Shown here: in pieces, positions 5,142 to 7,351 of the stretch
Layout: each line of letters opens with the position of its first letter
Position numbering within the stretch: the first letter of the stretch is position 1
Source of the DNA: a virus
Taxonomy: Duplodnaviria; Heunggongvirae; Uroviricota; Caudoviricetes
Virus record (IMG/VR): IMGVR_UViG_2693429524_000006
Strand: one strand, 5' to 3'
DNA: 7,351 bases
The notes under the pieces: model-generated
Told to the model about the DNA's origin: nothing
Database searches by the model: none
The model's input: the letters and a program-made list of their open reading frames with translations, nothing else
Made by a program: the position numbers and the translations under genes

Positions 5142-5489
5142 GTGCCATTCCACGGCGCAGAGCTTTATGTTGTCAATCACAACGGCGAACCGTATACCCC
5201 AATGAAACCTATCGTTGAGGGAATGGGGCTAGACTGGAAATCTCAACATAAGAAGATTTCTCAACGCTTCTCGAAGGGTATGGTGGAAATCACCATACCT
5301 TCTGCCGGTGGGGTGCAAGCCATGATTTGTATGGCTTTACGAAAATTGGCAGCTTGGTTGAACAGCATCAGCCCTAACAAAGTCCGCCCTGAAATCCGCG
5401 AAAGTATTGAAACATCAACCGTATCGATATCGACACGGTTGATTATGACGGTAACTTATTTCCGTGTGTCCTATTTCTCCCGCCACTAA
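5142..5489 (+). pseudogene. probable remnant of an antirepressor N-terminal domain gene (P22 Ant-N/Rha-like); truncated
   Basis: no ATG start (GTG at 5142, no SD; frame open back to 5082); PIVEGMGLDWKSQ...GGVQAMICMALRKLAAWLNSISPNKVRPEIRE resembles antirepressor N-domains as recalled; last ~25 residues look like out-of-frame junk. Confidence 0.35.
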
Positions 5490-5786
5490 CTAATTATATT
5501 TGTCTTTAAAAATTTCATGGAATGATTGAGAGTAAGACTTGCCATACTTCAAATAACATTCTTCATCCAACTTTCTTAATGAACTTCGAACCTGTTCGTG
5601 GCATACAGCAAAAAAAACAAGTCCGCCGCCTATTAATACCCCTATTGATATTGGGTTCGCAACATCCCATAAAAAATCGGCTAACAGAGCAAATACCCCA
5701 CCGCCGCCAATAAATGCCCCTATAGCTCGGTTCGTTTTAGCTTGCTCATAGCGTCTCTCTAACTCACTAAACTCTTTAATATCCAT
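5490..5786 (-). CDS. small membrane protein (98 aa) with two glycine-rich predicted TM segments
   Basis: ATG at 5786 with AGAGGT about 7 nt upstream; starts 18 nt after the stop of 5805..7190; segments AIGAFIGGGGVFALLADFLW and ISIGVLIGGGLVFFAV. Confidence 0.75.
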   Translation of the reverse strand: MDIKEFSELERRYEQAKTNRAIGAFIGGGGVFALLADFLWDVANPISIGVLIGGGLVFFAVCHEQVRSSLRKLDEECYLKYGKSYSQSFHEIFKDKYN

Positions 5787-5804
5787 ATAAGCACCTCTAT
5801 AAAA

Positions 5805-7190
5805 TTACTTCATCACCGGATCCACCTGGTTTATTAGTGGCGCAATCCAGAACAGGTTATTGCCGGGTATCAGGGTTCGGACATTATGCACAATACGATC
5901 ACCGGCATCACCATTCAACACTCCTGCGGTCACATCAATGATGCTATCCGCAAGACCAAATGACGGTCCGAATAGAGATCCTACGAATCCACGACTGGCA
6001 TACCTAGACTGTGTGCCAGTGCCAAATAAAGCCCCCAGCCCAACAGCACCACCAGTAGCCTTTTCAGCCATGTTGTTATATTCCATCAATGGCCCAAGAA
6101 TACCGGATCTATCTATACCCTCAAGCACCAGCTTCTCTGGTGACCAGTCAACATTTTTCCCTTTCGATGCTTCTTTTAGCGCATAGACCAGTGAGCCAAG
6201 AGCAATCTGAAATGCAGTGCCATAATAAAATTGCGCAGTTCCTTCCTGTAACCCACCAAGTAGCGCACGGTTGTATGAAGCCGTTGTGAATGATTTAAAC
6301 TGAAATATCGTTCGCCCCATTGGAGTACTCGCCCATAAAGGTGTGTCACCAATACCGGGGGTGATGATAGTGTTATTAACGTCTTTCAGAACCGCTGACT
6401 GGAATACTCCGGCAACGTACTGATCGTCCCATTTATCAAAGTTACCAATGTGCCATCCATCAATTACCTCACCATGTTTCTCGAACTCACTGCGAATACG
6501 CGCAGCCATATTGTCGTTGATACCGAGTTTTGCCATGCGACGTGCAGAAAACGCACCAGACAAAATACCGTCTGACGTGAGCATTCCGTTCATGGATTTG
6601 TTTATGTCATTAAATCGATCCATGAGTGTCAGCTTGCCGAAGGCATCAGTAATTCGCTCCATTCCTGCTTCGACTGCTGTTGTCCTGGAAGAACTGTCAA
6701 CAAGATCACCAATTGCACGAGAACGTGAATGTAGTACAGCTTCCAATCCAATCCCCATCTTCAACATCTCTTCTTTGCTGGCCTTAAATGCCGGTGATTG
6801 GGATATCTGAGAAGCATAGCCTTTCATGGTGTTACGGAAACCATTAACCATAACCCCTCTGGCCAGATCTGGAATAGCTGATACTGTCATTCCACCGAGT
6901 TTGGTCGTGAAGTTCACATCCCGCAGAAAAGCGCCAGCACGAACAAAAAACGAAGACGGATCATCAGGCATACCATATGTACCAACAAGACGATCGCGTA
7001 ATGCTGTTATGTCTCTGAGATCATTTGCTCTTGATTTTGAAAGTCTGGACTGTTCTTTCCGTAATTCCTTTTCGTACTTTCGCATTAATGAATCGAGTTT
7101 ACCCTGAGGAACAACTTCACCATTGCTCTCATAACGTGCTTTCAGATTTGCCACACTTTCGTCATATTTCGCCTTTATTTTTTCAGGCAC
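5805..7190 (-). CDS. hypothetical protein of at least 461 aa with coiled-coil N-terminus and Gly-rich C-terminus; possibly a phage virion or ejection-type protein; start uncertain
   Basis: long uninterrupted ORF ending TAA at 5805-5807; track start is GTG at 7190 with weak SD; in-frame sequence upstream stays coding-like to a stop at 7296-7298 with no ATG. Confidence 0.75.
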   Translation of the reverse strand: MPEKIKAKYDESVANLKARYESNGEVVPQGKLDSLMRKYEKELRKEQSRLSKSRANDLRDITALRDRLVGTYGMPDDPSSFFVRAGAFLRDVNFTTKLGGMTVSAIPDLARGVMVNGFRNTMKGYASQISQSPAFKASKEEMLKMGIGLEAVLHSRSRAIGDLVDSSSRTTAVEAGMERITDAFGKLTLMDRFNDINKSMNGMLTSDGILSGAFSARRMAKLGINDNMAARIRSEFEKHGEVIDGWHIGNFDKWDDQYVAGVFQSAVLKDVNNTIITPGIGDTPLWASTPMGRTIFQFKSFTTASYNRALLGGLQEGTAQFYYGTAFQIALGSLVYALKEASKGKNVDWSPEKLVLEGIDRSGILGPLMEYNNMAEKATGGAVGLGALFGTGTQSRYASRGFVGSLFGPSFGLADSIIDVTAGVLNGDAGDRIVHNVRTLIPGNNLFWIAPLINQVDPVMK

Positions 7191-7351
7191 TTCCCGTAAC
7201 AGACTGTCATATTCGTCCTCAATTAATTGCAGACGCTCAGTGAACCGCCCCGGGTTTCCTGGAGAGTGTTTTATCTGTGAACTCAGGCTGCCAGATCATC
7301 GTTTCCGATGGAAGCATAATAAGCTTTTTCTGCTTCTGCCGGAGGAGTATG

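Follow-up and report, generated by a model that had tools for sequence, protein, structure and literature searches.

A probable IS629-truncated remnant of a T7 gp16-type ejection-protein gene and its small membrane-protein neighbour in an Escherichia coli prophage contig

Two adjacent reading frames of a prophage contig raise the question of how a long, coding-like frame can be present without a credible start, and what the small gene behind it might encode. The window, meaning the whole stretch of 7,351 nucleotides analysed here, is the complete draft contig CYFD01000105.1 of an Escherichia coli assembly. On its minus strand, the ORF table contains a large ORF (5805..7190, 461 amino acids, mechanically called from a GTG start) and a small ORF (5490..5786, 98 amino acids, ATG start), which confirms the two minus-strand frames 18 nt apart claimed by an earlier note made from the sequence alone. 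The spacer between them (5787..5804, minus strand) carries a Shine-Dalgarno sequence, GAGGTG at 5797-5792, standing 5 nt ahead of the small-gene ATG; a promoter or terminator will not fit in its 18 nt. Above the large ORF, an in-frame TGA is located at 7298-7296, and no ATG, GTG or TTG occurs in frame between this stop and the GTG at 7190. A frameshifted gene, a truncated gene or a non-canonical start had been offered as explanations. Neither NCBIfam nor PADLOC gave a match for the large ORF or for the 98-aa protein.

Our present results make it very probable that the large ORF is the remnant of a gp16-type ejection-protein gene truncated by the insertion sequence IS629, and that the small gene is a real membrane-protein gene.

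The IS629 junction and the interrupted reading frame

The right-hand terminal 111 nt of IS629, a member of the IS3 family, occupy the edge of the contig (7241..7351, minus strand) and are identical at 111/111 positions to the terminus of the 1310-bp element annotated as IS629 in Stx2a phage Stx2_499. An additional 176 phage records match the window at 7241-7351 only, and where annotated, the matching segment is IS629 or an IS3 transposase. The element runs 5' to 3' on the minus strand, in the direction of the phage genes. The last codons of its OrfB (...HTPPAEAEKAYYASIGNDDLAA) are followed by the stop TGA at 7285-7283, in a frame other than that of the large ORF, and its right inverted repeat ends with ...GGGGCGGTTCA at 7241. 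The left end of IS629, 'TGAACCGCCCCGGGAATCC', lies outside the contig along with any target-site duplication; after a simple insertion, it would be expected to adjoin the phage-gene sequence '...GGCAAACGAACTATGACTG(A)'.

Homology to the phage TL-2011b and to the UTME-9 prophage stops exactly at 7241/7240. The segment 5805..7240 (minus strand) represents a pseudogene, the 3' remnant (codons about 531-1007 and the stop) of a gene for a 1007-aa internal virion, or ejection, protein of a TL-2011b-like temperate podophage. Its nucleotide sequence is 99.9% identical to TL-2011b gp38 from window position 7241 to 5811, and the encoded fragment differs at 2 amino acids from the corresponding part (residues 531-1007) of the intact protein of UTME-9. 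A clear virion-protein homology with a canonical start, which the earlier note had left to a longer sequence context, is found at locus L003, where the intact homologue of 1007 aa occupies 7414-10437. In this intact protein, the GTG at 7190 corresponds to an internal valine codon (…LLREVPEK…), and it has no usable Shine-Dalgarno sequence; it is a fallback of the gene caller and no real start. The ambiguous start is thus explained, because the IS629 end at 7241 cuts the gene. Of the three proposals, truncation was the correct one, while a frameshifted gene or a non-canonical start is not needed. The upstream in-frame sequence, described as coding-like, is indeed coding for the large gene from 7240 down, whereas bases 7241-7295 are IS629 terminal sequence.

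The frame of the remnant is open and undamaged across 478 codons. It differs from intact copies by 1-4 nt and contains no internal stops, which suggests that the insertion of IS629 is recent. Database entries from 3 draft contigs list an identical 461-aa product under the name 'Uncharacterised protein [Escherichia coli]'; this protein of several E. coli drafts corresponds to a pseudogene, the piece of a phage ejection-protein gene that IS629 has left. Some low-level translation of the remnant from the GTG at 7190 may take place by read-through from IS629.

Only the right end of IS629 and codons about 531-1007 are visible because the assembler stopped inside the repeat, and the 5' half of the gene cannot be seen because the contig ends inside IS629. 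As to this 5' half, a simple insertion and a deletion may both be compatible with the contig. When the missing N-terminal 527 aa were used as a query for the other half, relatives at <=87% identity only were found among the matches listed.

A short-read draft contig ending in a multicopy repeat could, in principle, be chimeric at its end and the real gene intact. The exact 41-nt IS629/phage junction had 0 matches in the contigs of the GTDB representative genomes and was likewise absent from 5,426 complete E. coli genomes, as an assembly artefact would predict. Nevertheless, contig CYAS01000059.1 of a second assembly starts with the same junction, 13 nt deeper into IS629, and the junction is present in a third contig too. 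The source strains have the assembly accessions GCA_001284405.1 and GCA_001283645.1. The break falls exactly at the terminal base of IS629, as expected for a true insertion, and independent IS3-family insertions have hit the same gene elsewhere, for example in UTME-14. We therefore regard an artefact as very improbable.

Slightly less credible still is a genuine shorter gene, starting at GTG 7190 or at an upstream non-canonical codon and yielding a functional product. It would account for the frame being intact over its whole length, and the orientation of IS629 sends the element's own transcription into the remnant. However, in intact relatives the canonical start lies 546 codons upstream of the valine encoded by GTG 7190; the latter has no Shine-Dalgarno sequence, what continues in frame above 7240 belongs to the inverted repeat of IS629, the open frame is explained by the recency of the insertion, and the exact ORF occurs in 3 contigs only. 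A programmed or mutational frameshift, joining the ORF to an upstream gene that leaves the window, has next to no probability: an other-frame ORF does run off the window end, with its stop at 7285-7283 just upstream, but this ORF is the IS629 transposase OrfB, identical to annotated copies and unrelated to the phage protein, and phage-gene homology starts abruptly at 7240.

Assignment of the remnant to the T7 gp16 / phiKMV gp37 family

The IS629-truncated remnant comprises the C-terminal 47% of an internal virion protein of the T7 gp16 / phiKMV gp37 type. Profile comparison matched the fragment to positions 781-1226 of the 1235 positions of phrog_342 (E=2.2e-107) and also to phrog_16310 (E=1e-249), and the intact homologue to phrog_342 positions 199-1226 (E=7.9e-208). 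T7 gp16 and phiKMV gp37 themselves matched phrog_342 with E=0 and E=5.5e-247, respectively. By BLASTP, the remnant is similar to residues 1143-1318 of phiKMV gp37 (E=4e-8), the pairwise identity being just 28% over 180 residues. A single-sequence search with phmmer found residues 1143-1316 of PDB 9sfn_G ('Internal virion protein', 1337 aa; E=1e-4), whereas a four-sequence profile of the intact protein had no match in the PDB. The match to T7 gp16 is short (residues 1101-1127, E=0.005). The earlier guess of an ejection protein was therefore right in kind, with profile and BLASTP evidence placing it in the gp16/gp37 type. TL-2011b gp38 and many prophage orthologues, annotated as 'hypothetical', thus belong to the T7 gp16 family. 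A sub-threshold Pfam hit of the large ORF to Tox-REase-2 (16.6 bits against a cutoff of 27.6) was dismissed as noise.

Conservation of the remnant is highest in its C-terminal region (5916..6443, minus strand), which contains an FQFKSF motif and a Gly-rich stretch (about 5955-6053). The glycine richness noticed earlier is real, fragment residues 381-420 having Gly at 9 of their 40 positions. By alignment, the region would correspond to the C-terminal putative membrane-insertion region of T7 gp16, called 'TMH II' and comprising residues 1119-1290 (PMC8954989). Roles in inner-membrane insertion and as a DNA conduit have been described for the gp16 family (PMC8954989). Kyte-Doolittle hydropathy of the C-terminal region of the remnant is mild, with one 19-residue peak of 1.21; 'membrane insertion' therefore rests on homology and literature.

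The N-terminal lytic transglycosylase is not universal in the gp16 family, being absent in P22 and Sf6 (PMC8954989). No SLT match was obtained for such a domain in the intact homologue, whose phrog_342 match begins at position 199; in intact relatives, it is the 902-aa protein encoded just before that carries the SLT domain. A swap of the lytic domain between gp15- and gp16-like proteins has been reported for K1E/K1-5 too (PMC8954989). The gene order in intact relatives is a gp10-like staple, a T7_gp14 family protein (181-191 aa), the 902-aa SLT protein, the 1007-aa protein and the 98-aa protein, with the ant/BRO region, tailspike and lysis genes downstream of the last. The order gp14-like, gp15-like, gp16-like in one co-directional block is thus found in intact relatives; in the window, it is cut by IS629 and the contig end.

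The 98-residue protein and its candidate roles

The small gene (5490..5786, minus strand) is intact and under purifying selection; 7/7 nucleotide differences from its UTME-9 counterpart are synonymous and 0 non-synonymous. It encodes a small predicted inner-membrane protein of phrog_21905 (E=1.2e-67 over 98/98 positions), an uncharacterised phage family that is covered by neither Pfam nor NCBIfam and lacks a solved structure. The two glycine-zipper-like transmembrane (TM) segments reported in the earlier note are seen by hydropathy at residues ~21-40 and ~46-62; both are Gly-rich and contain a GGG(G) run. Together with an N-terminal helix and a short DVANP loop between the TM segments, they make up a predicted two-TM hairpin; the AF2 model (pLDDT 79) has helices at residues 3-40, 45-81 and 89-97. 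The C-terminal tail bears the conserved phrog_21905 motif LDxxCYxKYGKxYxxS, and K83, Y85 and S88 are invariant in the family alignment. It is this tail motif, rather than the TM segments, that is most strongly conserved.

The protein is very common in E. coli assemblies; in the assembly collection, 4806 indexed blocks contain its exact sequence. Among 1.84 billion representatives, its family amounts to about 26 clusters when grouped at 50% identity, and 19/19 aligned members, including the window protein, match phrog_21905 only. Searches for relatives of other kinds gave no match to Pfam for the 19 members, nothing below E=0.1 among PDB sequences for the family, and generic helical hairpins only, with E above 1e-3, when the model was compared with BFVD and PDB by Foldseek. 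No match was produced by tblastn of the small protein against 50,697 deposited phage genomes. A 1285-aa protein (P0017) that came up in the exhaustive search proved to be a repeat protein of no relation, and no fusion.

Members of the family occupy a constant position. Their gene immediately follows a phrog_342 or phrog_684 gene in loci L003/L012, L005, L018, L021, L023 and L025; in L006-type prophages it stands behind a 70-nt relic of the 3' end of such a gene, and in all informative contexts checked it closes the ejection-gene block. The gap between ejection gene and 98-aa family gene is 7-21 nt, with a Shine-Dalgarno sequence, in lineages down to ~17-30% identity. No sigma-70-like site was detected at the scan threshold on the minus strand of 5200-7351, and upstream of the family genes of eight loci there are weak, non-conserved promoter matches only. 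The short gap, the Shine-Dalgarno sequence and the lack of an own promoter suggest co-transcription with the late ejection-gene block, and a product so tightly coupled would probably act at the inner membrane. The description of the pair as a two-gene operon is fair for intact relatives; here the first gene is a dead remnant. An identical 98-aa protein accompanies two gp16-like types only 42% identical, which argues against a tightly co-evolved partner. The conserved position of the gene may be just the shared genome architecture of related phages.

Exclusion of incoming related phages, by interference with gp16-type membrane insertion, is a possible though tentative role of the 98-aa protein. 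Its specific form would be a SieA-like superinfection exclusion protein, expressed by the prophage, that keeps the DNA of related podophages from passing the inner membrane; to this, too, we give no better than tentative standing. Morons are often lower in GC than their neighbours, and the 98-aa gene has a GC content of 38% vs 46% in the adjacent gene. Moreover, the gene shares the map position of P22 sieA: the last ejection gene is on one side, the ant/immI region on the other, and the tailspike gene follows downstream. Its product is likewise small and predicted to reside in the inner membrane. The ejection proteins on which P22 SieA acts are gp16 and gp20 (PMC10883804). Against this stands the comparison of the proteins themselves, which gave no similarity (BLASTP E=7.7, hhalign probability 0.3%): the 98-aa protein belongs to PHROG 21905 vs 7745 for SieA, has 2 TM segments in 98 aa vs 3-4 in 162-164 aa, lacks the FxRYPxEAxxFNK motif and matches no PADLOC model. 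The 98-aa gene is also co-directional with the ejection gene at its short distance and has no own promoter, while sieA is convergent and served by the promoter PsieA. The proposal of an exclusion protein is therefore not supported for the SieA family as to sequence, profile, TM count, motif and promoter; as a functional analogy it may stand. Nor does TL-2011b gp39, whose gene occupies the corresponding position, resemble SieA.

It is conceivable, if rather doubtful, that the 98-aa protein assists or handles the ejection proteins of its own phage. Along both lines, phrog_21905 could constitute a dedicated inner-membrane partner of gp16-type proteins in temperate podophages, either as a new exclusion class unrelated to SieA that stops incoming ejectosomes at this membrane or as a pre-packaging handler, with the conserved, putatively cytoplasmic LDxxCYxKYGKxYxxS tail as its interaction site; we put this forward with reserve. 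Some other function altogether is also possible. Should the 98-aa protein turn out to modulate the entry of DNA, podophage exclusion could be studied through it at little experimental cost.

A role in lysis timing, as a class II holin or an antiholin-type protein, seems unlikely. It would agree with the small size, the two predicted TM segments and the charged termini, and the order in the Citrobacter and L021-type genomes (gp16-like gene, small two-TM gene, small ORFs, T7-type large terminase) recalls T7, where the holin gene 17.5 is located just ahead of the terminase small-subunit gene. However, hhalign assigned a probability of 0.6% to T7 gp17.5 and no Pfam holin matched, so that homology to the T7 holin is rejected like that to SieA. 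In addition, another part of these prophages already provides a complete lysis cassette, made up of two holin-family genes together with a GH19 endolysin and DUF2514, and conservation peaks in the C-terminal tail and not in the TM segments.

Proposed history of the prophage and comparison with known systems

We propose that the contig bears part of a defective TL-2011b-like temperate podophage, in which a copy of IS629 sits within the last and largest ejection-protein gene. The 461-aa ORF from GTG 7190 is the gene caller's salvage of what remains. In the intact phage, the gp16-type protein is presumably carried in the capsid core until infection, when it is ejected; the C-terminal region retained here would, as in its family, insert into the inner membrane, thereby completing the conduit for the DNA. 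A prophage with no intact gp16-type copy would probably be unable to yield infectious particles, and in this sense the insertion marks the prophage as defective. The whole arrangement is ordinary prophage decay.

The closest known counterpart is TL-2011b gp38 (YP_007001989.1, 1004 aa, 'hypothetical protein'), which has the same frame and C-terminus as the window copy except for the last residue; the 1007-aa UTME-9 protein WP_337444690.1 is one of its prophage orthologues. Compared with gp38, the window copy has lost codons 1 to ~530 and is fused to IS629 instead. In TL-2011b, two unrelated genes in convergent orientation, and not the 98-aa gene, stand behind the gp38 gene. Likeness to T7 gp16 and phiKMV gp37 consists in the PHROG profile, the place after gp14- and gp15-like genes and the homologous C-terminal region. 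With 1007 aa, the intact relative is shorter than the 1318 and 1337 aa of the T7 gp16 / phiKMV gp37 group, and it is without the N-terminal transglycosylase present in T7 gp16. The counterpart of the small gene in P22 would be sieA, which also encodes a small membrane protein and likewise adjoins the ant region behind the last ejection gene; but sieA is convergent with gene 16 and has its own promoter, whereas the 98-aa gene is co-directional with its neighbour and tightly coupled to it.

Truncation of a gp16-like gene by IS629

The larger of two minus-strand ORFs (461 aa, GTG start, 5805..7190) is a pseudogene, the part of a T7 gp16-type ejection protein gene that is left after truncation by IS629, and lies in a defective TL-2011b-like prophage at a draft contig end. 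The ORF table reproduced this frame, the 98-aa one (ATG start, 5490..5786) and the 18-nt gap between them, in which a GAGGTG Shine-Dalgarno sequence is located 5 nt ahead of the ATG of the smaller gene. The Gly-rich C-terminal stretch of the large product and two hydrophobic Gly-rich segments of the small one were found as described in the earlier note. The in-frame TGA at 7298-7296 is also real and, in-frame ATG, GTG and TTG codons being absent between it and 7190, GTG 7190 is the sole in-frame start candidate.

When positions 5400-7351 were compared with phage records by megablast, two separate sets of matches emerged. Positions 7241-5811 matched Escherichia phage TL-2011b (99.9%), and the first ~115 bases (7351-~7237) matched 176 other records, mainly Stx phages, whose matched features are IS629 or IS3 transposase wherever annotation exists. 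In Stx2a phage Stx2_499 the matching element is annotated as IS629 (1310 bp, with OrfA and OrfB), and 7351-7241 (minus strand) is identical to its last 111 nt. The IS629 terminus ...GGGGCGGTTCA is reached at 7241 and the phage gene runs from 7240 on: TL-2011b reads ...CGAACTATGA|CTGAGCGTCTGCAATTAATTGAGG and the window ...GGGGCGGTTCA|CTGAGCGTCTGC... across this point. Since phage homology starts at 7240 and identity to IS629 (111/111 to the annotated element) lies above it, the in-frame extension to 7295, previously regarded as coding-like, is the end of IS629. The ORF running off the window in another frame is the 3' end of OrfB (stop 7285-7283). GTG 7190 is a valine codon within ...LLREVPEK... 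of an intact 1007-aa relative. The ambiguous start is fully accounted for, and there is nothing unusual about it.

The idea of a truncated gene was correct, as the IS629 end is fused to the 3' part of a gene whose intact 1007-aa relative is encoded in the orthologous prophage of E. coli UTME-9. Gene order there is capsid staple protein (gp10), an 823-aa and a 154-aa protein, "virion core protein, T7 gp14 family" (181 aa), a 902-aa SLT-domain protein, the 1007-aa hypothetical protein and a 98-aa hypothetical protein. The fragment corresponds to residues 531-1007 of the 1007-aa protein, with two substitutions and 3 nt differences. Its counterpart in TL-2011b is gp38 (1004 aa, annotated as "hypothetical protein"); ahead of this gene lie those for a tail protein, for two internal virion proteins of small size and for a 905-aa "endolysin".

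Three draft contigs encode exactly this 461-aa product, and the copies are deposited as "Uncharacterised protein [Escherichia coli]". The window is the whole of contig CYFD01000105.1 (7351 bp, GCA_001284405.1), and a 29.5-kb contig of GCA_001283645.1 has the same junction, starting 13 nt deeper in IS629. Short-read assembly at a true repeat boundary would probably yield contigs that end like these, ~110-125 nt inside a multicopy IS. The IS629/phage junction was not found in 5,426 complete E. coli genomes or GTDB representatives. A protein search with the missing N-terminal half gave, among the matches listed, relatives at 87% identity or less. In a related prophage of E. coli UTME-14 (L004, 2414-6751) a different IS3-family element interrupts the same gp16-like gene at another position, so IS hits in this gene recur. 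The UTME-14 element carries an annotated AL1L frameshift pseudoknot, and its second copy is present in the BRO region of the same prophage.

Relationship to T7 gp16 and phiKMV gp37

The view of the large ORF as an ejection protein is borne out by its membership of phrog_342 ("internal virion protein with endolysin domain"), which is also matched by T7 gp16 (E=0) and phiKMV gp37 (E=5.5e-247). The fragment aligns with profile positions 781-1226 of 1235 (E=2.2e-107) and the intact homologue with positions 199-1226 (E=7.9e-208). Direct matches were obtained to phiKMV gp37 residues 1143-1318 (28% identity, E=4e-8), to PDB 9sfn_G ("Internal virion protein", 1337 aa; E=1e-4) and to T7 gp16 residues 1101-1127 (E=0.005).

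Among ejection proteins, the gp16-like type is third and largest and crosses the inner membrane via C-terminal putative TM regions (T7 residues 1119-1290) (PMC8954989). Taken with these alignments, this points to the Gly-rich region as the counterpart of the family's conserved, putatively membrane-associated C-terminal part; its hydropathy in the remnant is only mildly positive. Presence of the lytic domain varies among gp16-like proteins: lysozyme activity resides on gp16 in T7 and on the gp15-like protein in K1E and K1-5 (PMC8954989). The same swap is seen here, the SLT domain being in the 902-aa protein.

Repeats and antirepressor genes in the rest of the window

Two copies, in inverted orientation, of an isrK sRNA plus C4 antisense RNA pair (Rfam RF01394, 77.9 and 67.7 bits; RF01695, 77.7 and 61.2 bits) are present at 1949-2134(+) and 4757-4943(-), each directly upstream of an antirepressor-type gene, BRO-N (2182..2877, +) and AntA (4051..4707, -), respectively. 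The arrangement resembles an antirepressor cassette under C4 control, of P1/P7 style, that has been duplicated. The isrK/C4 regions are covered by inverted repeats I2, I4 and I5, and the BRO-N and AntA proteins have in common a ~90-aa C-terminal domain that includes ...INDKAGFF. A 279-nt inverted repeat (2622-2900 vs 4028-4306, 96% complementary) could allow the 1.1-kb segment between its arms to invert. This segment contains a 190-aa ORF (3152-3724, +) whose counterpart in related prophages is a "type II toxin-antitoxin system YafO family toxin". Further repeats are direct, 1-184 = 2779-2962 (184 nt, 97%) and 996-1057 = 3940-4001 (62 nt, 97%; with GC-rich terminator-like hairpin AAGGCCGC...GCGGCCT), or inverted, 1-122 vs 4028-4149 (122 nt). 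Together, direct and inverted repeats indicate a mosaic, duplicated moron/immunity region.

ORF 5142-5489(+), convergent with the 98-aa gene and abutting it, is what is left of the N-terminal part of a truncated P22_AR_N antirepressor; its counterpart is a pseudogene in the UTME-9 annotation and an 86-aa P22_AR_N ORF in the related locus L011 (CP050218.1, 7.05-Mb genome). In L011 the stretch immediately downstream of BRO leads into a type I-E cas operon, which is complete (cas2, cas1, cas6e, cas5, cas7, cse2, cse1, cas3; 12612-20297) and stands in place of the tailspike and lysis genes.

The 98-aa membrane protein and its link to ejection genes

The small gene is an intact, conserved, uncharacterised membrane-protein gene. 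In the assembly collection, 4806 indexed blocks contain its exact product, which matches only phrog_21905, a family with no functional annotation; Pfam, NCBIfam, PADLOC and PDB searches gave no match. Run exhaustively over 1.84 billion representatives, an HMM search yielded only 26 clusters at E<=1e-3. Full-length members mostly have ~100 aa; a 1285-aa match was rejected as a spurious repeat protein. In the 19-member alignment an N-terminal helix is followed by two TM segments, the second with a GGG run, and then by a C-terminal tail. Invariance is confined to K83, Y85 and S88, all within the tail motif LDxxCYxKYGKxYxxS. AF2 modelling on this alignment (pLDDT 79) gave a long helical hairpin with a short C-terminal helix, for which Foldseek returned generic hairpins only.

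At every informative locus the small gene is co-oriented with the last large internal-virion-protein gene (phrog_342 or related phrog_684) and follows it at a distance of 7-21 nt. This holds for the E. coli 1007-aa type (L003, L012, L013), Citrobacter braakii (L005) and metagenomic relatives down to ~17-30% identity (L018, L021, L023, L025). In a second E. coli prophage type (1129-aa + 282-aa; L006-L011) the 282-aa gene intervenes, and a non-coding relic before the 98-aa gene, at ~9925-10000, preserves the 3'-terminal ~70 nt of the 1007-type gene, stop codon included. This relic marks a recombination boundary; the small gene was thus inherited with the 1007-type 3' end while structural genes upstream of it were swapped. 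One and the same 98-aa protein occurs alongside gp16-like proteins just 42% identical to each other.

Compared with UTME-9, the remnant (5805-7238) differs at 3/1434 nt (0.2%) and the small gene (5490-5786) at 7/297 (2.4%), all seven being third-position and synonymous; GC content is 46% and 38%, respectively. Unequal divergence and GC suggest two neighbours with different histories.

No sigma-70-like promoter was found on the minus strand of 5200-7351. A looser scan of 300 nt upstream of the small gene at eight loci gave weak, non-conserved matches only, and a Shine-Dalgarno sequence at every locus. We infer that the small gene is co-transcribed with the late ejection-gene block. Its conserved link with ejection genes is a mildly interesting leftover.

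T7 gp17.5 holin, tried as a relative, is unrelated; intact prophages already carry a complete lysis cassette elsewhere. The earlier note had likened the arrangement to ejection-protein then exclusion-protein gene orders in P22-like phages. In P22, sieA does sit after gene 16, between it and the mnt-arc-ant region, but the two genes converge and sieA is served by a promoter of its own, whereas the 98-aa gene follows the ejection gene on the same strand. SieA has 162-164 aa, three TM segments and a FxRYPxEAxxFNK motif (PMC10883804). The 98-aa protein belongs to a different PHROG, lacks this motif and showed no similarity to SieA by BLASTP or hhalign. An exclusion role of the 98-aa protein would be a functional analogy only.
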